From NCBI GenBank assembly GCA_004356825.1, contig SMXC01000249.1, positions 21,885 to 85,884 on the forward strand: DNA of 64,000 nt, read 5' to 3'. Below, one piece after another: positions 1,950-14,770 of this stretch. The translations under genes and the position numbers were made by a program. This DNA comes from Caldithrix sp. (lineage in GTDB: Bacteria > Zhuqueibacterota > Zhuqueibacteria > Oceanimicrobiales > Oceanimicrobiaceae). A model generated the notes under the pieces. It did not search any database. It saw nothing but the letters and a program-made list of their open reading frames with translations, and was not told the origin of the DNA. Numbering within the stretch: the first letter of the stretch is position 1; each line of letters opens with the position of its first letter.

Positions 1950-3188
1950 CTAGCGTCTTTTGCCCCTGCGGGAAGATGATGATCGTCCCGAAGATTTTGA
2001 TGAACCGCTGCTTTTACTGCTACCGCCTCTATAACTTTTGCCGCTGCCACCAGAGCTGTTGCCTGACTTGGAGCCACTGGGTTTGTAGCTTCTTTTCGGA
2101 CTGCTCTGGGATTTTGATGACCGCTCGCTCGAGTTTCTGCGTTTTACACTTTTACTTGACGAGGATTTACCGGCTTTTGAAGAACTTTTTCTATATTTAG
2201 GCGAGCTTCTATTGCTCTTCGACCTTCTCGAAATCGAACTTCGTGACTTTTTGGTTTTGCTTCTCCGGCTCTTTACAGCCTCGTCTCCGTCACTGCTGCT
2301 GTTTTTTCTTTTTGATTTTAATTTGGAATCACTTCGGCCACTTGACTCCCGCCCATTATCAGAACTTTTGCTGACCCTCTCAATGCGTTTCCCTCGCCTT
2401 CCCTGATCACTCGAGTCGGATCTTCTTTTCCGTCTTTTTATACGGTCTTTGCTGGATGCACTTTCTTTCCGAACACTCTGACCGCTGGATGTTCCTGCTG
2501 AAACTCTTGAGACCGGCGTATAATTGTCATCTCGTGAGCGTTCGTACCCGAAATCGGAGCCTCTTCTGCCGCGCCGGGTAAAATCACGCCGTTTTGCTGG
2601 AACACTGCGGACCGATGCAACGCTTGTCCTGGGGTAGTAATTTCCGTAATAGCCGTACGAACCTGATCTCAGGCACCCACCGTCAAAGTAGAAACCGCTG
2701 GTATAACCGAAAGAATATCGAGAGCCATAGTATCCAAAATAAAATGGATCGTAAAAAGGGTCGTAAAAACGACGCTGGTAACCGATGAAAAATGGATCAC
2801 GGTATCCTACATGCAAGGAAACATGACTTGAATAGGGTGCATACGAATCGTAAAAGTAAGGATCATAAAAAGGATCGTAATACCAGGGGGAAGGATAACC
2901 GCCATAAACATAAGTGTCGTGATAATATCTGCGCGTTAAGTGAATTTCATCATAATCCTCGATATCGCCCTCTTCATAATCCTCATAATCATCGTCTTCA
3001 CCGTATTCTTCATCTTCATAATAATCTTCTGGCTCTTCCGCATAATCTTCTGACTCGTCCGCGTATGTGCGTTGATCTGCCCTACTTGAATCAGGCTTCG
3101 CAAGCTGGGTATAACACCCGGAGAAGAAAAGCAACAAAACGAACATCAAGCTGAACAAGATTAGATTGTTAGATGTGTGCAACTTCAT
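1950..3188 (-). CDS. Lipoprotein with extreme compositional bias: an acidic D/E/Y block, an aromatic YDPF-repeat block and a long basic Ser/Arg/Lys tail. Unknown function.
   Basis: 412 aa. N-terminus MKLHTSNNLILFSLMFVLLLFFSGC (signal plus lipobox Cys). Residues about 35-80 are DEDYEE-rich. Residues about 85-190 carry YYDPFYDPYFYDSY and FYDPFYDPFYFGYYG repeats. Residues about 200-412 are almost only S, R, K and G (for example RRSKSNRSSPKYRKSSSKAGKSSSSKS). The frame stays open across 1.2 kb of repetitive DNA, which argues it is a real gene. Confidence 0.6.
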   Translation of the reverse strand: MKLHTSNNLILFSLMFVLLLFFSGCYTQLAKPDSSRADQRTYADESEDYAEEPEDYYEDEEYGEDDDYEDYEEGDIEDYDEIHLTRRYYHDTYVYGGYPSPWYYDPFYDPYFYDSYAPYSSHVSLHVGYRDPFFIGYQRRFYDPFYDPFYFGYYGSRYSFGYTSGFYFDGGCLRSGSYGYYGNYYPRTSVASVRSVPAKRRDFTRRGRRGSDFGYERSRDDNYTPVSRVSAGTSSGQSVRKESASSKDRIKRRKRRSDSSDQGRRGKRIERVSKSSDNGRESSGRSDSKLKSKRKNSSSDGDEAVKSRRSKTKKSRSSISRRSKSNRSSPKYRKSSSKAGKSSSSKSVKRRNSSERSSKSQSSPKRSYKPSGSKSGNSSGGSGKSYRGGSSKSSGSSKSSGRSSSSRRGKRR

Positions 3189-3407: not shown

Positions 3408-4034
3408 TCAGTTTTTAATATCGAATCGGTAAGGCTGGGTAATCCAGAATTGAACCGCACGATTTCCTTCTTTGGCAGGGCGAAAACGACTCCCGTATGC
3501 AGCGTCGACAGCTGCCTGGGCGCATTTTTCGCTGTTCGTGGTATTATCGAGCACGATCACTTCAACAACTTTCCCCTTATCGTCGATATGAATACTCAAT
3601 TTCACCACCCCCTGCACGCCTTTTTTCTTTTCTTCTTTCGGGTATTCCGGGAAAACCCAGGCAATGGGTTTTGGCGGGGTGATGTTTGTTCCGGTGATTC
3701 CTGGAACACCCGGTGAGTCGTCAAAAATATTAGTATATTTCAGTGTGGTTTCTTCAATCGTAACATCTTCCGGAATGGTTTCATCTTCTGACGGCACGGG
3801 TACAGTCGGCTTTTTGGGTGGAGGCTTCATTCTCGTCTGACGTGTGATTGGAATATTCTCAACATGGATGATAATGTTTGGCGGCACGACCTCTTCAACA
3901 CTGAGCTTTATACGAGGGGAGATAGCGACTAACAGGTTAAGAAATACGAGCGTAACAACTAATGCTTTCTTAATGTTAATTGAAAATTGAGCATGGAAGT
4001 CTGCTTTAATTTTTTGGAAATCAATTGAGGACAT
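3408..4034 (-). CDS. tonB: TonB-family energy transducer (C-terminal TonB domain protein).
   Basis: 208 aa. N-terminal TM helix (LVVTLVFLNLLVAISP). Pro/Lys-rich spacer (PPPKKPTVPVPSED). C-terminal TonB_C-like domain (VFPEYPKEEKKKGVQGVVKLSIHIDDKGKVVEV...AAVDAAYGSRFRPAKEGNRAV). Last gene of the Bat-like operon. Confidence 0.65.
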   Translation of the reverse strand: MSSIDFQKIKADFHAQFSINIKKALVVTLVFLNLLVAISPRIKLSVEEVVPPNIIIHVENIPITRQTRMKPPPKKPTVPVPSEDETIPEDVTIEETTLKYTNIFDDSPGVPGITGTNITPPKPIAWVFPEYPKEEKKKGVQGVVKLSIHIDDKGKVVEVIVLDNTTNSEKCAQAAVDAAYGSRFRPAKEGNRAVQFWITQPYRFDIKN

Positions 4035-4055: not shown

Positions 4056-4835
4056 TTAGATTGTTTCTAAAACATCTACTTCTAACCAACCGATTTTTCC
4101 GTCGGCGAGACGAATCTTAACCCAAGTTTCCGAGTGATCTTTTATTTGAACTTTCACACCTTCGTGGAGAGTAAAAACCTCTGTCAGGCCGCCCGGCGCA
4201 CTTTTAACATCGACCCTATCTTTGATGACGATAGCTTCGACTTTGGTCTCATTCTCAAAAATCCTCATTACAAAAAGTCCTGTAAAGACAGTTAAAGTGA
4301 CAGAGGCAGAAATTATTGCGACAAAAGCGGTTCTTTGCAATTGAGGTGATTTTAGATAAATCCGAAGAACGGTGAGGAAGATTAAAAGTAAATACGTTGA
4401 GAGGGTAATTCCGCCGAGTACTTTTAAGTTGATTGAATGCGCTATAGTTGATGCCAACTTAAAAAGAAAGAACTGCGGCAGCTCTTGTATTCGATCGACG
4501 ATGGCCAAATTAGCCAGCTCTAAATTATAATTAATATCCTCGTCTTTTAGATTAAGTTTCTTTGCCCGCTCGAAGTTTAGAATTGCTTTCGCGGTTTGTC
4601 CATCTTTAAAATAGGCATTGCCAAGATTATAATAGACTTCCCAACTTTCATAATCTGAATTTAGAATCTTCTCGAATTCCTTGATTGCAACTTTATAATT
4701 GCCCGCCTGGTAAGACTCGTTTCCCCTCACAAAAAAAACTTCCACTTCCTTTGCGAGAAGAGTATTTGCCAAGCAAAGAATTGACAAAGTCATGATCATA
4801 AAATAACTAAAATATTTATCGAATTTCATGTCCAT
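4056..4835 (-). CDS. batE: BatE-like membrane protein with TPR repeats, TM helices and a C-terminal SH3b-like domain.
   Basis: 259 aa. TPR-like N-terminus (YYNLGNAYFKDGQTAKAILNFERA). Two or three TM helices. C-terminus DRVDVKSAPGGLTEVFTLHEGVKVQIKDHSETWVKIRLADGKIGWLEVDVL resembles bacterial SH3. Start overlaps the stop of the BatD homolog. Position in the operon matches batE. Confidence 0.55.
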   Translation of the reverse strand: MDMKFDKYFSYFMIMTLSILCLANTLLAKEVEVFFVRGNESYQAGNYKVAIKEFEKILNSDYESWEVYYNLGNAYFKDGQTAKAILNFERAKKLNLKDEDINYNLELANLAIVDRIQELPQFFLFKLASTIAHSINLKVLGGITLSTYLLLIFLTVLRIYLKSPQLQRTAFVAIISASVTLTVFTGLFVMRIFENETKVEAIVIKDRVDVKSAPGGLTEVFTLHEGVKVQIKDHSETWVKIRLADGKIGWLEVDVLETI

Positions 4836-6745
4836 TAGATTTCTTTTTCTAAATTAATAATCGCTTTTTTTGCCTTTTCAAAAAAATCACTCATTGCCAG
4901 GTTGTTTGAATCGCCTGGCGCAAATCGTTTATAGTCGCACGTTTTTAAACAATCAAGATAGCTGGAAACAGTATTTTCTTCAATCTTCTGAACATGGAGC
5001 ATTTTATCGACTTCGTCGGTGATGAGACCGGCCGACGCCACATTCAATTTGTCGCCAATGAATCCCATTAACGCTTTTGAAACTTCTCCATAAAACCCAG
5101 ATAAATTATTTGCCTTCATTTGTTTATTTGCGTCTTTCAGCCGACTCAGGGCCATATGATTTGCTTTTCGGCTGCGGGCGTAAGCCACATTTGAGCTCAG
5201 TTTATCTAAATGCGCCCGATAAGAAAAAGCAGTTCCTAAAATAATGAGAGGAAATATCAGAATCACATAGAAAAATGTTTTCTTATAAAATACACTATTT
5301 TTTCTTTGAAATTCCGGAATTCTCGTTTGGAGATAATGAATATCCTGGCCAATAAATCTCACATCCTCTTTTGAACTGCCAATGCCAACATTAACAAATT
5401 GATCATCACCCTTAGTAACCGAAATCACTTTTGTATCGGTGGATATTGTTCGATATGTTTTTGAGGGCAAATCAAAATAGGAGAATGTAACGGGTTTGAT
5501 CGACTGCTGGCCCGGGAACCGCGGGATAATCACATATTCAAATAATTTAGAACCGGAGATTTGGCCGGAGCTCCTTTTAATACTTTCATTGATTTTCGGA
5601 TCATATACCTCGAAATCCGAAGCAAAATCGATTTTTGGCTGGGGCACTATTTTGATATTTCCTGTTCCCGAAATATTTACTTTAAGCGTAATTGCCTCAT
5701 TTGTCTTTACCCTGGTTTTGTCAACGGACGAGCGGATTGAAAAACTTCCAACAGCCCCGGAAAAGTCGCTGGGTTTACCTTTCTCGGGAAGCGGCAGCAC
5801 TTCAATTGAGATTGAGTTTGACTGAATGCCTACCCTTTTGGTATTCCGGGAAAACGGATCGTCAAAAAAACTGTCAAATATATCCCGGCTTCGTCGTCTT
5901 CGGCGGGGTAACTGTACCTCACATTCAATGACCATCGGTTCTAAAGTTTTCTGACCCGAGCCTTGGGGGAAAAGAGCCATTTTTTTAATTTCGTATACTT
6001 GATACTGACGGCCATTAACAAATTCAGTAAATGACGTCAGACGCTGCGGCATTTCAAATTCCTCCGACCAAAACCCAACCGTACTAGGCAATTGAGAAAC
6101 ACCATAATTGGTCACATTCACGGTCGTATAAATTTTATAGCTGATAATAACCGGTTCGTTCTTGTAAACACGCCGTTTATCAACAGAAGCTTTTAGAAAC
6201 AATTGCTCAGATAAATCCTGCGGATCGTTCGGGGAACCAGGAATGCGGGAACTTCGTTGCTGAGGTGAGGTCCCTTTGACAATCTCAATGTCAATAACGT
6301 CGGTTGAATAGGTCTCACCTTTGTATCTAACAGTAATAGCTGGAATTTGAAACTTACCCTCAGTAGAAGCTAAAAAATGATGTTTAAAAGTTTTGGAGAC
6401 TGACATCCGGCCGTTTACAAATTGCATACTTGTAGAATTGCTGGTGCCGATAAAAGAAGCAAAGCCATCTAAAACCGGTACCTCCGGGTCAGAGACTCTT
6501 TGAACGTCTCGACCGGACAATTCGACATTCAACTCAAACTGCTGATTGAGCCGGACTGAAGATTTATTTACATAAGCTTTTATCTCGAAATCCTGCGTGA
6601 AACTTGGAACTGCCGTCAAAAAAAGAATCCAAGCGAGGGAAGTTAAAACAGAAAATCTATTCTTTCTACTCATAAAATTAATCGGATTTGCTTGCAAGTC
6701 GATAATGGGCGAGGATTTCTTGACCATTCTAGTTTTATCTATCAC
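4835..6745 (-). CDS. batD: BatD-family protein: large periplasmic domain, single C-terminal TM helix, conserved cytoplasmic tail.
   Basis: 636 aa. Signal peptide (probable true start MSRKNRFSVLTSLAWILFLTAVPSF at about 6673). Long beta-rich ectodomain. TM helix (FFYVILIFPLIILGTAF). Cytoplasmic tail ends ...LDCLKTCDYKRFAPG. Architecture and operon position match BatD of Bacteroides and Leptospira bat operons. Confidence 0.6.
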   Translation of the reverse strand: MIDKTRMVKKSSPIIDLQANPINFMSRKNRFSVLTSLAWILFLTAVPSFTQDFEIKAYVNKSSVRLNQQFELNVELSGRDVQRVSDPEVPVLDGFASFIGTSNSTSMQFVNGRMSVSKTFKHHFLASTEGKFQIPAITVRYKGETYSTDVIDIEIVKGTSPQQRSSRIPGSPNDPQDLSEQLFLKASVDKRRVYKNEPVIISYKIYTTVNVTNYGVSQLPSTVGFWSEEFEMPQRLTSFTEFVNGRQYQVYEIKKMALFPQGSGQKTLEPMVIECEVQLPRRRRRSRDIFDSFFDDPFSRNTKRVGIQSNSISIEVLPLPEKGKPSDFSGAVGSFSIRSSVDKTRVKTNEAITLKVNISGTGNIKIVPQPKIDFASDFEVYDPKINESIKRSSGQISGSKLFEYVIIPRFPGQQSIKPVTFSYFDLPSKTYRTISTDTKVISVTKGDDQFVNVGIGSSKEDVRFIGQDIHYLQTRIPEFQRKNSVFYKKTFFYVILIFPLIILGTAFSYRAHLDKLSSNVAYARSRKANHMALSRLKDANKQMKANNLSGFYGEVSKALMGFIGDKLNVASAGLITDEVDKMLHVQKIEENTVSSYLDCLKTCDYKRFAPGDSNNLAMSDFFEKAKKAIINLEKEI

Positions 6746-6786: not shown

Positions 6787-7542
6787 TTACCAATCTTTTC
6801 CTCTGAAAGGTCGACCCCGCCTCTTCGGTTTCTGCTCCTTTAATAAATCTTTTTCTTCATTTTGCAAGGCATTCAAAAGCCTTTCCGCATCTTCTTTGGA
6901 AATCTCTTTGGGTTCAGTGGCTTGCTCTTGCTGCTGTTCCTGTTGTTCCTCAGGGTTTCCCTGATTTTCCTGATTGTTTTGCTGCTGTTCTTGCTGTTCT
7001 TCTTTCTGCTCTTCAGAATTTTGTTCTTTATCCTGATTCTGCTCCTCTTGCTGCTGTTGCTCCTGTTGCTCCTGTTGCTGCTGTTGTTGATTTTCTTGAG
7101 GCTGCTTCTCTGATTTATCTTTGAGTTTTGCTCTCACATACTCCAAATTATATTTAGCATCTTCATCTTCAGGATTTAATTCAAGAGCTTTTTTGTAGGC
7201 TGAAATACTTTCTGGCAGCTTGCCCATTTTATAAAGTGTATTGCCAATGTTATAATAACTTCCCGATTGCACTTTAATTTCATCGGAGGAAGTCGACTTT
7301 TCATAAGATTTAATGGCCTCTTCAAAATGGCGTTTTTTGTATTGCACGTCCCCGATATTAAAATTTATGATTGCAGACTCAGGGTTTTCGACAAGTGCGT
7401 CGCGGTATTTATTATTGGCTTCGTCATACTTTTCTTCGGCGTAGAGCTTATTGCCCGCGGTCACCTGTTTGTGGCCGCCTTGGGCAAAAGCTGAAATCAC
7501 AAAAAATACATTCAGAATTAAAAAGAGAATCATCTTCCGCAT
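6787..7542 (-). CDS. batC: BatC-like TPR protein with a Gln/Glu-rich low-complexity region.
   Basis: 251 aa. Signal peptide. Three or more TPR-like repeats (YNIGNTLYKMGKLPESISAYKKALELNP). Then QQQQQEQQEQQQQEEQNQDKEQNSEEQKEEQQEQQQ and a basic C-terminal tail. Sits between the two vWA genes and batD. Confidence 0.55.
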   Translation of the reverse strand: MRKMILFLILNVFFVISAFAQGGHKQVTAGNKLYAEEKYDEANNKYRDALVENPESAIINFNIGDVQYKKRHFEEAIKSYEKSTSSDEIKVQSGSYYNIGNTLYKMGKLPESISAYKKALELNPEDEDAKYNLEYVRAKLKDKSEKQPQENQQQQQQEQQEQQQQEEQNQDKEQNSEEQKEEQQEQQQNNQENQGNPEEQQEQQQEQATEPKEISKEDAERLLNALQNEEKDLLKEQKPKRRGRPFRGKDW

Positions 7543-7556
7543 TTATTTCTCCTAAA

Positions 7557-8591
7557 CTATTGCTCAAATCTTCCGCGCCACTCTCGACCGGTTTTAACTC
7601 TCTCAGAAATAATAAGCTCCAAAACCAGCAGTAGCATTGCAAAACCTACAACATATTGAAATCTGTCCTCATATTGTGAAAACTTCATAGAGGCCAGCTC
7701 CTTTTTTTCCATCTTTGAAATTTCCTGATAAATCCTCTCCAGCTTTGTTTCACCGGTGATTGAATGATAGAATTTCCCTCCTGTGGCCAGGGCAATTTTC
7801 TGCAGCGTTAATTCATCCAGCTTGGTCACAATAGGCTCGTTTTTTTGATCCTTCCGAAAGCCTTTCTTAGCGCCCCTTTGATCATATAAAGGAATTAGCA
7901 CGCCCTTTGGAGAACCTATTCCGACCGTGAAAATAATTACGCCCTCTTTATCCGCCGCCCCGGCAATATCTTGAGTCTTACTGCCATGATCTTCACCATC
8001 AGTGATGAGAATCAAAACCTTATACTTTCGTTCTTTTGACTCAAAACTTTTCATCGCCAATGCAATAGCAGCGCTTAGGTTGGTCCCGGGATCCGGAATC
8101 AAAGTTGGATCCATAATTTCCAGAAAGGTCTTGGCAGCGCCATAGTCCAGGGTAAGTGGACATTGGATAAATGCTTTTCCAGCAAATGCAATAAGCCCGA
8201 TTCGGTCCCCTTCAAGCAAATCAATAAATGTGGCAATTTCATGTTTTGCTTTGGCAAGCCGGCTCGGTTGAATGTCTTCCGCAAGCATGGAGAAAGAAAC
8301 ATCTAACGCCACAAAAATATCGACGCCCTCCCTTTTGACCTCTTCCAAACGAGTGCCAATTTGGGGACGGGCGAGCGCAAGGGTCATAAATAAAACGGCA
8401 AAAATCAGCAGCGCTGCTTTACCAATTTGACGGCCGTGGCTTGTGGACTGGCTTAATTTATTCACTAAATCAAGATTGCCAAAACGAGCCAAAGCCCGCT
8501 TTTTCCATTTAAATACAAAATAGTAAAATCCGATAAATACCGGGATTAAAAGCAAAAATAAGAAATATTCGTTGTCGGCAAACCTAAGCAT
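7557..8591 (-). CDS. batB: von Willebrand factor A domain membrane protein (BatB-like).
   Basis: 344 aa. Two N-terminal TM helices, then a vWA domain with the MIDAS-like DxSxS motif (VALDVSFSM). Pairs with the upstream vWA paralog and the MoxR and DUF58 genes. Confidence 0.7.
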   Translation of the reverse strand: MLRFADNEYFLFLLLIPVFIGFYYFVFKWKKRALARFGNLDLVNKLSQSTSHGRQIGKAALLIFAVLFMTLALARPQIGTRLEEVKREGVDIFVALDVSFSMLAEDIQPSRLAKAKHEIATFIDLLEGDRIGLIAFAGKAFIQCPLTLDYGAAKTFLEIMDPTLIPDPGTNLSAAIALAMKSFESKERKYKVLILITDGEDHGSKTQDIAGAADKEGVIIFTVGIGSPKGVLIPLYDQRGAKKGFRKDQKNEPIVTKLDELTLQKIALATGGKFYHSITGETKLERIYQEISKMEKKELASMKFSQYEDRFQYVVGFAMLLLVLELIISERVKTGREWRGRFEQ

Positions 8592-8726: not shown

Positions 8727-9722
8727 TTATGGTATCTTTCGAAATTTAGTATTCGTCAGCACCACCTCGGCCACGATGAGGCCTAAGGCCATAAACAAAT
8801 AAGTTGAAAACAATTCTTTGAAACGCGCAAATTGTTTTATCTCGATTTTGGTTTTTTCCAGTTGATCGATTTCCTGAAAAATTTTATCCAGACTTTCTTT
8901 ATCGGTGGCTCGATAGTAACTGCCTTTGGTTATTTTAGCAATTTCTTTCAAAGTCTTTTCATCTATTTGAACGGGCATTTGCACATATCGTTTCCCAAAG
9001 ATCGGATCATCCACCGGATAAAGCGCTGTGCCTCGTTTACCGATGCCTACGGTGTAGATTCTGATGTCAAACGCTTGACCGACTTTAGCGGCTGTAATCG
9101 GATCAAGTTGCCCCTTATTATTTTGCCCATCCGTCAAGAGGATGATGATCTTGCTCTTTGCCTTGCTGTAACGGAGCCGGTTCGCGGCATTCGCAATTGC
9201 CATCCCAATCGCAGTCCCATCCTCGATCATGCCGCTTTCCACTTCATCAATAAAATTGAGTAGAATTCCATAATCCAAAGTCAGAGGGCACTGTGTGAAA
9301 CTTTTGGCGGCAAATACCACCATGCCGATTCGATCGTTTTTTCTTCCTTTAATAAAATCCTTAGCCACCTGTTTCGCTGCTTCTAACCGGTTATTCGGTC
9401 TAAAGTCCTCGGCCAACATGCTGCTGGAAATATCGAGAGCTAAGATAATATCAACCCCCTCGGTGATCACTTCTTCTTCTGTGTGACTGGACTGGGGTCT
9501 GGCAAAACAAAGAATTAAAAGAGAAAGAGCTAAAAGACGAAAAACAAAAGGAAGATGGCGGTATTTCCTTTTGCTCGAAAATTTTTCAACTGATTTCACC
9601 ACGCCCAGATTTGAATACCGTAAAGTACCGAAGCGTTTGTTATTTCTACGGAAATACCAAAATATTAGGATCGGTATTAAGACAAAAAGGAATAATAAAT
9701 TCGGATTAGCAAATGTAAACAT
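8727..9722 (-). CDS. batA: von Willebrand factor A domain membrane protein (BatA-like).
   Basis: 331 aa. N-terminal TM helices, vWA domain (ILALDISSSM... TDGQNN), C-terminal TM helix. Paralog of the gene at 7557..8591. Confidence 0.7.
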   Translation of the reverse strand: MFTFANPNLLFLFVLIPILIFWYFRRNNKRFGTLRYSNLGVVKSVEKFSSKRKYRHLPFVFRLLALSLLILCFARPQSSHTEEEVITEGVDIILALDISSSMLAEDFRPNNRLEAAKQVAKDFIKGRKNDRIGMVVFAAKSFTQCPLTLDYGILLNFIDEVESGMIEDGTAIGMAIANAANRLRYSKAKSKIIILLTDGQNNKGQLDPITAAKVGQAFDIRIYTVGIGKRGTALYPVDDPIFGKRYVQMPVQIDEKTLKEIAKITKGSYYRATDKESLDKIFQEIDQLEKTKIEIKQFARFKELFSTYLFMALGLIVAEVVLTNTKFRKIP

Positions 9723-9723
9723 G

Positions 9724-10746
9724 CTATCCCTGCTCCTCTACGGGTTCCGCCAAATGCTCTTCATGGTTTATGAGACTTTCAACTTTGGGGGGTCCCTCAG
9801 TTTTTTCCGGTTCTTCATAAATCAGTTTCGTGCATTCGACGATTTCAAAGGCTTTGTCAAGGTTCACCAAATTTTTCGCACTGGTTGGCGTGTACTTGGC
9901 AAACTTGACTAAATCGCAGGTACTGAGAAATTCCTGGAACATTGAAATTTCTTCAGCAGAAATTTCTGAGCGCTCCAAATTTTCTATCAACTCGAAAGTG
10001 GTCAATTCCATTGCAACAATGAAATAACGGCCTTCGACGTACCTGCGGATCACTTCGGAAATTCGAATGTAAAACTCTTTCACTTTGCCTTCCTGTAATA
10101 ATGATGATCCTTTTAGAGCAGTCAATTCTTGCAAAGCAATTTCATGTGGAGGGTGCGGCGGCTTAATTTTTTCCGGCAGCAATCCCTTGCCGGCCCGTTT
10201 TCTGCGCCAGATATAGAATAAAATGCCTGCAAAAAGGATTGCAGCAAAACCGATGCTTCCCCAGATAATCCACTTGCGGTAATCTTTCGGTAAAACCAAC
10301 GGAGCTTTAATATCGCGGATATCTCCCTCTTCGCTGGGTCTCATGCTTTCAACGAGAATCTTTAGTTTTTTTGTTTTCAGCTCGTGTTTTATGGAGTCGG
10401 GCGGGAATGAATAATAAAAGCTAAGCGGGGGAATTTCAAATTCCCCAACGTCAAAAGTAGAAATGATATAATCAAACTGTTCAACCGATTTACTATTCTC
10501 GATAAAAGGTTCATGAACTGTGTAATCTCTAATCTCAAAAGCTCCAAGATTGGCGCCCAATTCGGGCAGTTCAACCTGAACTCCGGCATCGTGGGTCACA
10601 ATAATCGAATAAGTTACAAGATCGCCAATTGTGATCGTGCTCTTGTCGACTTCGGAATGAATTTTAATTGAACCTTCTTGTGCAAACGAAAGCCTGGATA
10701 AAACAAATACGGCGAACGCCAAAAAAGCAATAAACTTAAGTCTCAT
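9724..10746 (-). CDS. Short BatD-family paralog: periplasmic beta-domain, one TM helix and the conserved cytoplasmic C-terminal module.
   Basis: 340 aa. Signal peptide (MRLKFIAFLAFAVFVLSRLSFA). TM helix IIWGSIGFAAILFAGILFYIW followed by RRKR. C-terminal ...AMELTTFELIENL...FQEFLSTCDLVKFAKYTPTS. This aligns with the BatD tail (LITDEV...YLDCLKTCDYKRFAPG) and with the 13820..14770 protein. Confidence 0.5.
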   Translation of the reverse strand: MRLKFIAFLAFAVFVLSRLSFAQEGSIKIHSEVDKSTITIGDLVTYSIIVTHDAGVQVELPELGANLGAFEIRDYTVHEPFIENSKSVEQFDYIISTFDVGEFEIPPLSFYYSFPPDSIKHELKTKKLKILVESMRPSEEGDIRDIKAPLVLPKDYRKWIIWGSIGFAAILFAGILFYIWRRKRAGKGLLPEKIKPPHPPHEIALQELTALKGSSLLQEGKVKEFYIRISEVIRRYVEGRYFIVAMELTTFELIENLERSEISAEEISMFQEFLSTCDLVKFAKYTPTSAKNLVNLDKAFEIVECTKLIYEEPEKTEGPPKVESLINHEEHLAEPVEEQG

Positions 10747-10889: not shown

Positions 10890-11822
10890 CTACTTCACTT
10901 TGTCATCGTAAATATTTACAGCCTCTGCCCGCATCATCCTTTGAACCAGGCGGTCATAGGCTTTTTTCTGCTCCTCACGTATAAGATCCTGCATCACTTG
11001 TCCCCTTACCTCATCAAATGGCTTTGTGCGAACCACTTTGCCATTGCCGTCTTTTTCGCCATATTGTTCTCTATTGGCTTTATAATAAAGCTCAACGTCT
11101 GATTCATTTATATTAACTTCTTTGGAAATTTCTTCTGCCAGAAGTTTGTCAACCATAAATCCTTTCTTCGCCCGGAAGGTTGCTTCAACGACTTCTTTAT
11201 CTTTCTCTAATCCCTTTCTCCTCGCGGTATTATAAAGTAATTCATTTGCGATAAATTTCTTAAGAAATTCTACCTTCTTATCTTTGCTATTTAATTGCGC
11301 TTGCAGATGAGGCCGCAAGAGAGAGATTTCATGGTCCAGATCGCCACTGGTGATCCGGCGCTTACCGATTTTGGCAATAACCTCTCCTGACCGGCTTGCT
11401 TGCGCTTGCGACGGATCCAGGAGGGTTGCTTCCTCCAGGACTTGCTGTGCGTCGGCGGAACGCTGAAGCCGTTCCAGGCACTCAACCATCTTTTTGTTCA
11501 CTTCATCCAATAATTCGCTTTCTGGGTAGAGGTGCTTAATCTTCAAAAAGTAGGTTAAGGCACCTTCATAATCATGAACACGTTCAAAATAAATATTTCC
11601 GATGGAGTAATTTATCTGCGCAGCCTCGGAATCATCGAGGGTATAATTGTCTAAATAAAAATTGTACTGAACCACTGCCTGTTGGTAAAGTTCGCGATTG
11701 TACAAAGCGCTGGCATACCCGCGAATTTTCGTTCCGTCGAACTTGGGTTGCGGGGCATTTTGGCACCCCACCGCTACAACCAAAACAAAAAGCAGCGACA
11801 AACTCAATTTTTTACAACTCAT
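10890..11822 (-). CDS. Periplasmic chaperone-like lipoprotein with TPR-like repeats and a SurA-N/PpiD-like domain; no PPIase domain.
   Basis: 310 aa. Lipoprotein signal MSCKKLSLSLLFVLVVAVGC. TPR-like helices (YNFYLDNY..., YSIGNIYFERVHDYEGALTYFLKI). A SurA N-terminal-like segment (GEVIAKIGKRRITSGDLDHEISLLRPHL...FLKKFIANELLYNTARRKGLE). Embedded in the MoxR/DUF58/vWA operon. Confidence 0.5.
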   Translation of the reverse strand: MSCKKLSLSLLFVLVVAVGCQNAPQPKFDGTKIRGYASALYNRELYQQAVVQYNFYLDNYTLDDSEAAQINYSIGNIYFERVHDYEGALTYFLKIKHLYPESELLDEVNKKMVECLERLQRSADAQQVLEEATLLDPSQAQASRSGEVIAKIGKRRITSGDLDHEISLLRPHLQAQLNSKDKKVEFLKKFIANELLYNTARRKGLEKDKEVVEATFRAKKGFMVDKLLAEEISKEVNINESDVELYYKANREQYGEKDGNGKVVRTKPFDEVRGQVMQDLIREEQKKAYDRLVQRMMRAEAVNIYDDKVK

Positions 11823-11846: not shown

Positions 11847-12725
11847 TTAACGGAACCGTTTGGCACGCATCCGGAAAAATTTGATCAGCGGCTCAATGTA
11901 CGAAACGTCGGTGTTAATATCAATGCTGTCCACATTCATGGAACGAAAATTTCTGTCCCGTTCCTCTCTTGAGATTGAAGTTTCCCGAGTAAATGCTTGC
12001 CTTGTTGTCAAATCAGCCGTGTCCAGCATAATTATTTCGCCGGTTTCGGCGTCCTCTAATTCAACCAGGCCGATATTGGGCAGCTCAATTTCCCGCGGGT
12101 CGGTAATGGTAATCGCCACTAAATCGTGGCGTTTATTGGCTATCTGCATAGCCTTCTGATAATCTTCCGAAATAAAATCTGATACAAGAAAAACTACTGA
12201 GCGCCGAGTGATGACTCTACTCAAATATTCGAGCGCAAGTGAAATATCGGTGCCTTTTCTTTTCGGTTCGTGGTACAAAAGTTCTCTGAGGACCCTGAGT
12301 ACATGAGTCTTGCCTTTTTTGGGAGGTACGAACTTTTCAATGCGATCGGTAAAAATAATCAGACCGACTTTATCATTATTCTTAATGGCCGAGAAGGCCA
12401 ACAAAGCACAAATTTCGATAGCAATTTCCCCCTTCATTCGCTCAAAAGTACCGAAGTCAACGGACGAACTGACATCTACCAAAAGCATAACTGTTAGCTC
12501 GCGCTCTTCCTCGAAGACTTTGACAAACGGATGTCCCATGCGTGCCGATACATTCCAGTCGATCAACCGAATGTCATCGCCAATTTGATATTCGCGCACT
12601 TCGGAAAATTCCATGCCCCGGCCTTTGAATACCGAATGATATTCTCCGGAGAAAACATCGTTCACCAAGCCACGAGTTTGAATTTCGATACGTTTGACTT
12701 TTTTGAGAATTTCTTTTGGGATCAT
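11847..12725 (-). CDS. DUF58 family protein (vWA-like partner of MoxR ATPases).
   Basis: 292 aa. Characteristic DUF58 N-terminus (GEYHSVFKGRGMEFSEVREYQIGDDIRLIDWNVSARMGHPFVKVFEEERELTVMLLVDVSSSVDFG). Located immediately downstream of moxR. Confidence 0.8.
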   Translation of the reverse strand: MIPKEILKKVKRIEIQTRGLVNDVFSGEYHSVFKGRGMEFSEVREYQIGDDIRLIDWNVSARMGHPFVKVFEEERELTVMLLVDVSSSVDFGTFERMKGEIAIEICALLAFSAIKNNDKVGLIIFTDRIEKFVPPKKGKTHVLRVLRELLYHEPKRKGTDISLALEYLSRVITRRSVVFLVSDFISEDYQKAMQIANKRHDLVAITITDPREIELPNIGLVELEDAETGEIIMLDTADLTTRQAFTRETSISREERDRNFRSMNVDSIDINTDVSYIEPLIKFFRMRAKRFR

Positions 12726-12730
12726 AAGGG

Positions 12731-13720
12731 TTACGGCACTTCAATCTTATTCAAAACCTTACGAACCACATCTTCCGGAGTGATTTCTTCCGCTTCCGCT
12801 TCGTAAGTCACCAGGATCCGGTGGCGCAAAACGTCCATGCCAATCGCACGGATATCTTCCGGTACAACGTAACCTCGCCGGCGTAAAAACGCGTGGGCTT
12901 TTGCGGCCTGGTGCAAAAAAATCGAGGCCCTGGGAGAAGCTCCAAAAGAAATCAAGTCTTGCAAATCATCAAGACCGTACTCCGCTGGGTTCCGAGTTGC
13001 AAAAACAATATCAATGATGTATTTTTCAACTTTTTCATCGATATAAATTTCTTTAACTAAATTTCGCGCAGAAATGATATCCTTCGGTCCAACAACGGCC
13101 TTTACTTCCGGGATTTTCTTGCCGGTCATTCGCCGCATAATTTCCAACTCTTCCTCTTTGTTTGGATAGCCGACCGACAGCTTCAACATAAAGCGGTCGA
13201 CCTGAGCTTCAGGGAGCGGGTAAGTTCCTTCCTGCTCAATCGGGTTCTGAGTCGCTAAAACCAAAAACGGATCATCGAGAGGAAATGTATTTTCGCCAAT
13301 GGTGACCTGGCGTTCCATCATCGCCTCCAAAAGCGCCGACTGAACTTTTGCCGGGGCGCGGTTGATTTCGTCCGCTAAAACCAGGTTCGAAAAAATCGGC
13401 CCCTTTTTTGTCGTAAATTTTCCGTTTTTTTGATCATAAATTAAAGTCCCAATTATATCGGCTGGCAAAAGATCTGGCGTGAATTGCAAGCGTTGAAATT
13501 TAGTCCGGATAGTGGAAGAAAGAGTTTTGACCGCCATCGTTTTGGCCAAACCGGGCACACCTTCCAACAAAATATGACCATTTGCGAGCAGCCCAATCAA
13601 GAGACGCTCAATCATGTATTTTTGGCCGACAATTACTTTTGCGACTTCTTTAGATATTTTATCGACGAACTCGCTTCCCTTTTCTATTTTTTTATTTATC
13701 GCTTCAATGTCAACAGCCAT
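12731..13720 (-). CDS. moxR: MoxR-family AAA+ ATPase.
   Basis: 329 aa. Walker A GVPGLAKT, Walker B LLADEINRAP. MoxR signature layout. First enzymatic gene of the Bat-like operon. Confidence 0.85.
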   Translation of the reverse strand: MAVDIEAINKKIEKGSEFVDKISKEVAKVIVGQKYMIERLLIGLLANGHILLEGVPGLAKTMAVKTLSSTIRTKFQRLQFTPDLLPADIIGTLIYDQKNGKFTTKKGPIFSNLVLADEINRAPAKVQSALLEAMMERQVTIGENTFPLDDPFLVLATQNPIEQEGTYPLPEAQVDRFMLKLSVGYPNKEEELEIMRRMTGKKIPEVKAVVGPKDIISARNLVKEIYIDEKVEKYIIDIVFATRNPAEYGLDDLQDLISFGASPRASIFLHQAAKAHAFLRRRGYVVPEDIRAIGMDVLRHRILVTYEAEAEEITPEDVVRKVLNKIEVP

Positions 13721-13819: not shown

Positions 13820-14770
13820 TCAAGAGGGTTCTATGCGGTTACGCTCTTCGCGCCTTGAACTTTTATTTTTATTGAAAACATCTTCAACCAGAGTGTAGGC
13901 GCGTTCCAGGGTGGCTTTCTCCACCTGACCTCCGGAAAACTTTGCCACATCGCAGGAATTCAATATCTCATCTACTTCGTTAATTATCTTTTCAGGAACT
14001 GCCAGTTCAATCAATTTGCTTGCGATTTCTTTTGTGGTGATTTCCAGTGCCGGAATCTGGTATTTTTCAGACAAATAGCTTCGAAACACTTTTGAAAGAG
14101 AGGAAAACATTTCCACCACATTCTGATTTTTCAGATCGACCTTTTCTTTAAAGTCAGCAAGGTATCTCTCCTCAATCGGAATTAGCTCCTGGGCGTGTTT
14201 TTCCAACTCGGCTTCCCGTGTTTTTTTTCGCTTCAAAAATACAAAACCTAAGGTGACAACCAAAGCCAAAAAGAAAAGAGTGGAGGCAGCAAAAATAAAC
14301 GGTTTTAATGTTCGTTTTTTAATCGGCGTGACAACTCTGATTTCCAGACGATCCGTGACTAATCGATGTGTTTCGCCATATTTGGTATCTGTATATTCGA
14401 TAATTATACCGTCAATATAGGCCATCCCAAGCTCAATTGGCTGAAGCGTATACTCATAGGTGCGCACCGCCTGCATCACTCCCGCCACCTCACCAACCGA
14501 GTTCGAAGAAGAGTTGCCAATCTCTTCTAAATTGGTTAGAACAGGACTCTCAACCTTGTCGATCTCGTAACGGCTCAAATTACCTTGCCAACTCACTTTG
14601 ATTGTGCAAGTAACTGTTCTGTTTTGAGGAACTTCGTTTAGATCGACTTGGACTGCCGCGGTAATTGCCTCGGTCTGAGATAAGGAACTAACTGCGGAGG
14701 TAACCTGGTTTTGCGGTAAACAAAAATTTACTAAGAAAAATATGAAAACAACCGAAAATAAAAAATGCAT
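13820..14770 (-). CDS. Short BatD-family paralog (signal peptide, periplasmic domain, one TM helix, conserved cytoplasmic tail). First gene of the operon.
   Basis: 316 aa. Signal peptide MHFLFSVVFIFFLVNFC. TM helix FIFAASTLFFLALVVTLGFVFL followed by KRKK. C-terminal ...ALEITTKEIASKLIE...EVDEILNSCDVAKFSGGQ matches the CDxxKF module of the 9724..10746 protein and of BatD. Confidence 0.5.
   Translation of the reverse strand: MHFLFSVVFIFFLVNFCLPQNQVTSAVSSLSQTEAITAAVQVDLNEVPQNRTVTCTIKVSWQGNLSRYEIDKVESPVLTNLEEIGNSSSNSVGEVAGVMQAVRTYEYTLQPIELGMAYIDGIIIEYTDTKYGETHRLVTDRLEIRVVTPIKKRTLKPFIFAASTLFFLALVVTLGFVFLKRKKTREAELEKHAQELIPIEERYLADFKEKVDLKNQNVVEMFSSLSKVFRSYLSEKYQIPALEITTKEIASKLIELAVPEKIINEVDEILNSCDVAKFSGGQVEKATLERAYTLVEDVFNKNKSSRREERNRIEPS

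Follow-up and report, generated by a model that had tools for sequence, protein, structure and literature searches.

What is the C-terminal tail that recurs in three proteins of a single Bat/MoxR operon, and which of its residues matter? Operons of this type occur in many bacterial phyla and have been associated with virulence as well as with aerotolerance and stress survival, and to our knowledge no mechanism has been described for them. An aerotolerance or oxidative-stress phenotype is reported for Bacteroides batD mutants (cited in PMC11834572), and a Leptospira batABD deletion strain showed wild-type growth and morphology (PMC3557215). The 64,000-nucleotide stretch analyzed here (the window, from contig SMXC01000249.1 of a Caldithrix sp. 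assembly) carries a complete Bat/MoxR operon on its minus strand, as judged from its list of open reading frames (ORFs) and a Pfam scan. Three of its products, BatD and two shorter proteins here called p340 and p316, were singled out in an earlier reading of the DNA letters (the original prediction) as sharing a tail with a conserved Cys-Asp pair. We find that they share one ancient module, consisting of a periplasmic juxtamembrane motif, a transmembrane (TM) helix, and a predicted cytoplasmic five-helix bundle, which is homologous to the domain DUF4381 and is joined to a single BatD beta domain (in p340, encoded by the third gene of the operon, and in the clade-specific p316) or to several (in BatD).

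Three proteins of the operon share a homologous tail

BatD, p340, and p316 have a common layout, in which an N-terminal hydrophobic signal segment is followed by one or more beta domains of family PF13584 (BatD DUF11-like), one internal TM helix, and a helical C-terminal tail of ~110 to 130 amino acids (aa). The three minus-strand ORFs were found at the coordinates given in the original prediction, and the layout described there was recovered in each (Table 1); the TM helices were called at residues 159 to 177 in both p340 and p316 and at 490 to 508 in BatD. With a Pfam gathering threshold of 24.1 bits, PF13584 scored 140 bits in BatD (over three stretches), 31.8 bits in p316, and 26.6 bits, barely over the threshold, in p340, and the position of all three genes in a MoxR-DUF58-BatA-BatB-TPR operon likewise marks them as BatD family members. 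BatD is reported to carry a signal sequence (PMC3557215). Since a signal peptide is followed by a single TM helix and then by a basic stretch (RRKRAGK or KRKKTRE), the tail should face the cytoplasm.

Beyond the TM helix, the three tails align essentially without gaps over ~80 to 110 residues. Pairwise Smith-Waterman scores were 76, 76, and 111, where shuffled sequences averaged 27 to 34 (z = 11.4, 10.3, and 12.7), and none of 1,000 shuffles reached the observed score, so the proposed similarity stood well clear of shuffled controls. A hidden Markov model (HMM) built from unrelated database representatives only matched the three ORFs, and nothing else, across the 64-kb window, with E values of 9e-65, 2e-49, and 3e-24. 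On the strength of these alignments, we regard the similarity of the three tails as real homology.

The two short proteins had also been described as "mini-BatD" paralogues. Both score above the Pfam threshold for BatD, and residues 25 to 283 of p340 are colinear with residues 301 to 578 of Bacteroides BatD (E = 2e-8), that is, with the last beta domain, TM helix, and tail, the only part of BatD proper to which the short proteins correspond. This description is right, yet it is already present in annotation and in print, because RefSeq uses the label "BatD family protein" and a published remark notes that Bacteroides fragilis carries two BatD-domain genes, bf2420 and bf2416 (PMC5700661). The window BatD is itself 34% identical to BatD proper of Bacteroides finegoldii over 588 aa (E = 6e-105). 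Near-identical database proteins of equal length were found for p340 (P0001, 340 aa), BatD (P0121, 636 aa), and p316 (P0241, 316 aa).

The shared module is a divergent DUF4381 domain

Alignment A2, which brings together 27 diverse tails, was turned into a profile and searched against 1.84 billion cluster representatives; 24,294 of them matched at E ≤ 1e-3, and at E ≤ 1e-10 there were still 11,005. The best 143 new matches were taken as a sample of diverse representatives for column counts. Most of them are proteins of 300 to 370 aa with the tail at ~180 to 315, which is the architecture of p340 and p316; a few are of BatD size, and the shorter ones either come from fragmentary contigs or have no beta domain. 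Family matches in this sample were to PF13584 (76 proteins), to the NCBIfam model LB_053 (64), and to DUF4381 (PF14316; 45).

The DUF4381 profile has 145 positions and a gathering threshold of 27.2 bits. Two proteins that match the tail profile at E ~1e-24 exceed this threshold, P0443 with 35.1 bits over profile positions 3 to 143 (motif SCDRVKFAR) and P0440 with 30.3 bits (motif QSDMVKFAK), as does a consensus of the juxtamembrane motif, TM helix, and tail of 115 representatives (31.9 bits, positions 18 to 141). DUF4381 covers the same three elements as the window module, and the juxtamembrane motif of p340 has equivalents both in Pfam-passing DUF4381 members (EDIHDIRGP) and in 161- to 188-aa orthologues of p340 that have no beta domain (DDIRPLK). 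The difference lies at the N terminus, where the window proteins carry BatD beta domains and short DUF4381-type proteins, such as P0443 and the 161- to 188-aa orthologues, do not. Judged by these profile comparisons, the shared TM helix and tail are a divergent DUF4381 domain, one that is already catalogued and extremely widespread. BatD, the unnamed third gene, and DUF4381 thereby share one TM-plus-tail module, and three annotations are unified.

The weak point of this assignment is the scores of the window proteins themselves, which lie below the DUF4381 threshold: p340 reaches 16.7 bits (E = 0.009, residues 158 to 238), and BatD and p316 give no match. Because of these low direct scores, membership of the window tails in DUF4381 is a matter of transitive homology, and the relationship is therefore probably invisible in the annotation of the window proteins. 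Pfam scans of the 27 single tails similarly returned no consistent family, and DUF4381 was recovered only with full proteins or with the consensus that included the TM helix. DUF4381 is a domain without an attached function, and our literature search found it mentioned in two papers, once each. A tblastn search of P0443 against plasmid sequences returned no DUF4381-only protein from proteobacteria and only four records, all from Bacteroidales, that appear to be chromosome fragments deposited as plasmids.

Other families touch the module more loosely. Against NCBIfam NF047493 (LB_053, Leptospira), p340 scored 32.2 bits (E = 5.9e-8, residues 22 to 276 aligned to model positions 9 to 250 of 273), short of the equivalog cut-off of 200 bits; p340 is thus a distant relative rather than an equivalog, and the short BatD-type architecture is also present in spirochaetes. 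Matches to DUF4129 (PF13559) were isolated, weak, and below significance (E = 0.05 in 1 of the 27 tails, E = 0.0016 in 1 of the 143 representatives, and E = 0.11 for the consensus, at positions 20 to 68 of 69), and those to DUF6377 fell under its cut-off (7 of 143 representatives; 26 bits for the consensus against 36.7). DUF4129, which we take to be the cytoplasmic tail of TgpA-type transglutaminases, likewise encoded beside MoxR-DUF58, may be a distant relative of the tail, as may DUF6377.

Conservation centers on Asp, Lys/Arg, and Phe rather than on Cys

The original prediction called the Cys-Asp pair invariant. This is true among the three window proteins (CDYKRF, CDLVKF, and CDVAKF) but false across their families. 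In the 143 representatives, the first motif column holds C in 58%, A in 21%, S in 17%, and T in 2%, while the other motif columns are nearly uniform (D 99%, K/R 100%, F 99%, A/S 98%), which leaves the C-terminal end of helix 4 with a nearly invariant signature, D-x-x-[KR]-F-[AS]. The Cys column reads C 117 and S 3 in close homologues of p340 and C 43, S 5, A 5, L 1, and V 1 in the p316 family (60 members), whose remoter members have SE, AE, or GE. Close BatD homologues have CD (115), CE (3), or SD (1), and across 63 BatD-size proteins from several phyla the counts are C 61 and A 2, D 59 and E 4, R/K 59/63, and F 63/63, so that the motif is conserved in BatD orthologues, as had been supposed. 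In Bacteroides and Prevotella, the short proteins have Ala-Asp in place of Cys-Asp (TADLVKFAK), and BatD has Cys-Glu (DCEFARFAP in B. finegoldii, ECEFQRYAP).

The "ELTT" element named together with the Cys-Asp pair is clear in the short proteins (ELTTFE and EITTKE) but degenerate in BatD (GLITDE). Among the 143 representatives, its four conserved columns, numbered 64 to 69 in the profile, are E 79%, T 84%, T 83%, and E 78%, and helix 3 begins with a T-x-x-E pattern that resembles a capping box. Positions conserved alongside the D-x-x-[KR]-F-[AS] signature, in the same numbering, are S47, R51, Y53, R/K57, E64, T66, T67, and E69.

Could the Cys-Asp pair nevertheless be a metal, redox, or acylation site, as originally suggested, with a part in sensing or handling oxidative stress? 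The high frequency of Cys in BatD proper speaks for it (115/120 close homologues, in addition to the multi-phylum count above), as does a second Cys four residues upstream in BatD proper (CLKTCDYKRF; 4919 to 4951, minus strand, residues 599 to 609). Of 114 close BatD homologues, 112 have the resulting CxxxC[DE] pattern, as do 40 of 56 multi-phylum BatD proteins, and the pattern could form a two-Cys half-site in a dimer. However, A, S, or T replaces the motif Cys in ~40% of the diverse short-family representatives, and the Ala of Bacteroides and Prevotella third-gene proteins occurs in relatives of the very organism in which Bat was defined. The position also falls within an i+3/i+4 hydrophobic series of helix 4 (columns 87/90/91/94/97, by column hydrophobicity), in the other 16 multi-phylum proteins the place of the upstream Cys is taken by L, I, V, F, or T, the acidic partner is Glu in Bacteroides BatD, and the domain is predicted to lie within the reducing cytoplasm. 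The Ala/Ser/Thr exchanges, the Ala of Bacteroides and Prevotella, the hydrophobic stripe, and the exchange of the upstream Cys with L, I, V, and F together indicate that the motif Cys is a small, replaceable helix-packing residue that faces the core, and not a ligand or redox centre. We therefore consider a Cys-based site very unlikely, and its redox and metal versions in particular were set aside on the conservation pattern and the helix-face position. Within D-x-x-[KR]-F, it is instead the Asp, Lys/Arg, and Phe that are of functional interest.

Predicted fold of p340 and its tail

An AlphaFold2 model of p340, built with 150 homologues, has a mean predicted local distance difference test score (pLDDT) of 83.7. 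It contains a signal helix (residues 2 to 21), a beta sandwich (27 to 132), a TM helix (154 to 184), five tail helices with pLDDT >90 (200 to 212, 222 to 241, 250 to 259, 264 to 282, and 289 to 305), and a disordered acidic C terminus. The best Protein Data Bank (PDB) match of the full-length model is TRAP-beta (SSR2) of the eukaryotic Sec61-TRAP translocon (8btk_TB; E = 1.8e-4, prob 1.0, 165 columns). This likeness spans residues 27 to 184 and consists of a beta sandwich beyond the membrane joined to a single TM helix, as in p340; Pfam TRAP_beta was matched by 2 of the 143 representatives.

The tail itself is predicted to form a five-helix up-and-down bundle with the four-helix up-and-down core of HEPN-like proteins, such as Dfer_2879 (PDB 3mfn) and AF0298 (2hsb). 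This resemblance raises the question of whether the tail belongs to the HEPN superfamily and acts on RNA or a nucleotide, by binding or by cleavage. Its sequence is only 6 to 13% identical to those of HEPN structures (~10% for 3mfn and 2hsb), and a search of the tail profile against PDB sequences found no relative, the best match being a designed protein (E = 0.0075). The column table of the 143 sequences has no conserved His 4 to 6 residues after a conserved Arg (Rx4-6H), and the sole partly conserved His lies in an RPxHE element near the membrane. Up-and-down helical bundles also recur by convergence. We see here a resemblance and not membership, and hold an RNA- or nucleotide-directed role to be extremely improbable; the HEPN nuclease in particular was rejected for its missing catalytic motif. 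A literature search on 3MFN and Dfer_2879 found nothing.

The module is the constant part of the third gene

We scanned loci from one genome per species with a query alignment made of p340 relatives only and obtained 80 loci. Because of that query, the set is biased to third-gene proteins of the CDLVKFAK type. Its record labels include Calditrichota, KSB1, Gemmatimonadota, Acidobacteriota, Omnitrophota, Zixibacteria, TA06, Ignavibacteria, and others. All loci with a long enough contig have the gene order MoxR-DUF58-[p340-type]-BatA-BatB-BatC-BatD-BatE, with the p340-type gene directly after DUF58 or after DUF58 and a TPR/SurA_N gene. Three tail-bearing ORFs were found in 27 loci, two in 42, and one in 11, the last mostly on short contigs.

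In metagenome-assembled genomes (MAGs) labelled Omnitrophota and Planctomycetia, the third-position orthologue is only 161 to 188 aa long and comprises the juxtamembrane motif, the TM helix, and the full tail, with the beta domain missing. Since these orthologues keep the whole module, what stays constant in the third gene is the module rather than the beta domain.

The same operon position is occupied in B. finegoldii and Prevotella nigrescens by a protein of 355 to 362 aa. The Bacteroides version (bf2420 in B. fragilis; WP_237923824.1 in B. finegoldii, 362 aa, annotated "BatD family protein") is the closest known counterpart of p340, with which it shares the signal peptide, one BatD beta domain, TM helix, and tail. 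The B. finegoldii protein is 28% identical to p340 over 301 aa, full length (E = 2.6e-25), and its tail matches the tail profile at E = 1.7e-26. The Bacteroidales proteins differ in having Ala for Cys (TADLVKFAKH) and an extra hydrophobic helix, an apparent TM helix, at the extreme C terminus after the tail, which was seen in B. finegoldii and P. nigrescens and is missing from the Calditrichota proteins. If that helix spans the membrane, the tail would be tethered at both ends. In P. nigrescens, moreover, BatD (858 aa, L081 10155 to 12731) is a BatD-BatE fusion with TPR, TM helices, and SH3 after the tail, which resembles the BB0170 fusion reported in Borrelia (PMC5700661).

The window operon differs from the Bacteroides and Prevotella operons examined in having p316 and a TPR/SurA_N lipoprotein. 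In the 80-locus set, the genes for these two proteins always occur together and only in Calditrichota/KSB1-type loci, which suggests a lineage-specific accessory pair. The peculiarity of the window thus appears modest and lineage specific, namely, a third tail-bearing paralogue and its accompanying lipoprotein.

A possible docking role for the tail

Where the tail sits offers a clue to what it may do. The vWA domain of BB0173, a BatB-like protein of Borrelia, is periplasmic by experiment (PMC5700661). Because of this, and because MoxR and DUF58 have no TM segment, no folded cytoplasmic domain other than the tails is predicted in the membrane-embedded Bat proteins, and the tails are therefore the obvious place to look for a contact with MoxR or DUF58. 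The third gene, always tail bearing, sits next to DUF58, whose DxSxS motif (MIDAS, the metal-ion-dependent adhesion site) is kept in 62 of 69 loci. On balance, we lean toward the reading that the tails are a cytoplasmic docking or assembly domain that would link the periplasmic Bat complex to cytoplasmic MoxR/DUF58. The tails could pair with each other, as HEPN-like bundles usually do, and/or be held by the MoxR-DUF58 pair, and the single TM helix would then carry ATP-driven remodelling across to the periplasmic assembly of BatD, vWA, and TPR proteins.

The comparison behind this reading is with NorQ/NorD and NorB, in which a cytoplasmic MoxR ATPase and its MIDAS-bearing vWA partner work on a membrane protein from its cytoplasmic side; the MIDAS is needed for NorB maturation, and mutagenesis led to the proposal that it binds the acidic NorB residues D220/E222, which lie where a TM helix has its cytoplasmic end (PMC9976466). 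DUF58 is not NorD, and the likeness is an analogy only. On this precedent, in which acidic residues at NorB's cytoplasmic face are acted upon, the DUF58 MIDAS metal has a candidate acidic ligand in the near-invariant Asp of D-x-x-[KR]-F. Taken to its most specific form, the analogy would make the DUF4381-type tail the missing transmembrane coupler of MoxR-proper systems, in which the DUF58 MIDAS clamps the Asp, the MoxR hexamer pulls on tail and TM helix, and the energy of ATP remodels the periplasmic BatD/vWA/TPR assembly. We think it unlikely that this scheme is correct in full. The weak DUF4129 matches hint that the same coupling logic might extend to TgpA-type MoxR-DUF58 operons.

Several points weigh against a docking role of this kind. 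The cytoplasmic side of the tail is a prediction only, and the adjacency of the tail gene to DUF58 is equally an adjacency to BatA. The contact with MoxR/DUF58 could be made by cytoplasmic loops of BatA and BatB instead, and the Asp could equally well be engaged inside the bundle, in a salt bridge to a residue such as the conserved Arg or Tyr of helix 2.

In the main rival explanation, the tail is purely a scaffold for homo- or hetero-oligomerization, through which the two or three BatD-type proteins of an operon would bundle their cytoplasmic helices and so assemble the periplasmic complex; it makes no direct contact with MoxR or DUF58, and D, K, and F have structural roles as a helix C-cap or an internal salt bridge. 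The dimerization typical of the HEPN-type bundles that the fold most resembles would suit a scaffold, as would the presence of two or three tail-bearing proteins in most of the operons, and the T-x-x-E pattern and the Phe that ends helix 4 could both be structural. A scaffold leaves unexplained, however, why the tail gene stays beside DUF58 even in lineages where it has no beta domain. Furthermore, about 10 polar positions are conserved at or near 80% (S47, R51, Y53, R/K57, T66, T67, D95, and K98 above it; E64 at 79% and E69 at 78%), more than simple packing usually needs. We regard a pure scaffold as somewhat unlikely and retain docking to MoxR/DUF58 as the preferred reading. Neither a new kind of system nor a redox site is revealed by this analysis, and what it offers for use is modest.

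Feature coordinates and minor observations

Table 1. Coordinates of the operon genes and of the features of the tail-bearing proteins. Positions are those of the window, except in the last six rows, which give positions in loci of other genomes.
Feature	Position	Strand	Remarks
p340, short BatD-family protein, third Bat operon position	9724..10746	-	340 aa; after DUF58, before BatA
p340 signal peptide, residues 1-22 (...SFA/QE)	10681..10746	-	hydrophobic peak 3-21; model helix 2-21
p340 periplasmic beta sandwich (BatD DUF11-like), residues 27-132	10351..10668	-	PF13584 at 32-132; model strands 27-132; TRAP-beta-like fold
p340 juxtamembrane motif DIRDIKAP, periplasmic side	10300..10323	-	kept in relatives
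p340 TM helix, residues ~155-179, then RRKRAGK	10210..10284	-	hydrophobicity, model
p340 predicted cytoplasmic five-helix tail, residues 197-305, DUF4381-like	9832..10158	-	model helices pLDDT >90; profile matches
p340 ELTTFE, T-x-x-E pattern at start of tail helix 3	9991..10008	-	conserved columns 64-69
p340 motif CDLVKFA, C-terminal end of tail helix 4	9898..9918	-	column statistics
BatD	4835..6745	-	636-aa ORF; PF13584 140 bits, three stretches
BatD TM helix, residues 489-509	5219..5281	-	hydrophobicity
BatD predicted cytoplasmic tail, residues 510-636, with CLKTCDYKRFAP	4838..5218	-	alignments; independent HMM E 3e-24
BatD motif CDYKRFA	4919..4939	-	alignment, column statistics
p316, second short BatD-family protein, directly upstream of MoxR	13820..14770	-	316 aa; PF13584
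p316 TM helix, residues 158-178	14237..14299	-	hydrophobicity
p316 predicted cytoplasmic tail, residues 179-300	13871..14236	-	alignments, HMM
p316 motif CDVAKFS	13934..13954	-	alignment
MoxR AAA+ ATPase	12731..13720	-	AAA_3 220 bits; no TM segment, predicted cytoplasmic; candidate partner of tails
DUF58 protein, vWA-like fold, MIDAS motif DVSSS	11847..12725	-	DUF58 294 bits, VWA_2 61 bits; no TM segment, predicted cytoplasmic; candidate partner of tails
TPR + SurA_N-like lipoprotein, clade-specific	10890..11822	-	310 aa; between DUF58 and p340; lipobox VAVGC
BatA (BatA_N domain + vWA)	8727..9722	-	Pfam scan
BatB (BatA_N domain + vWA)	7557..8591	-	Pfam scan
BatC, TPR protein	6787..7542	-	ORF list and Pfam scan
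BatE, TPR + SH3	4056..4835	-	ORF list and Pfam scan
TonB_C-like gene	3408..4034	-	208 aa, single TM, after BatE
Short third-gene orthologue	L057 1090-1656
Short third-gene orthologue	L060 6857-7372
Short third-gene orthologue	L071 6884-7369
Short third-gene orthologue	L051 2142-2666
Third-gene protein, B. finegoldii	L082 7338-8426
Third-gene protein, P. nigrescens	L081 6353-7420

The BatD ORF begins at a GTG codon, and its signal peptide begins after Met25 (MSRKNRF...; 6671 to 6745, minus strand), so the true start is probably near 6673 (Met25); BatD orthologues are about 600 to 660 aa long, most of them about 600 to 630 aa. In BatC, the TPR repeats are followed by ~60 residues of Q/E-rich low-complexity sequence. 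The 208-aa gene that follows BatE has a C terminus that looks TonB_C-like when the sequence is inspected by eye, and it also occurs in ~20 Calditrichota/KSB1-type loci. Finally, a 412-aa ORF at 1950 to 3188 (minus strand) has a signal-peptide-like start and a D/E/Y/P-rich half, followed by a long S/K/R-rich low-complexity half.

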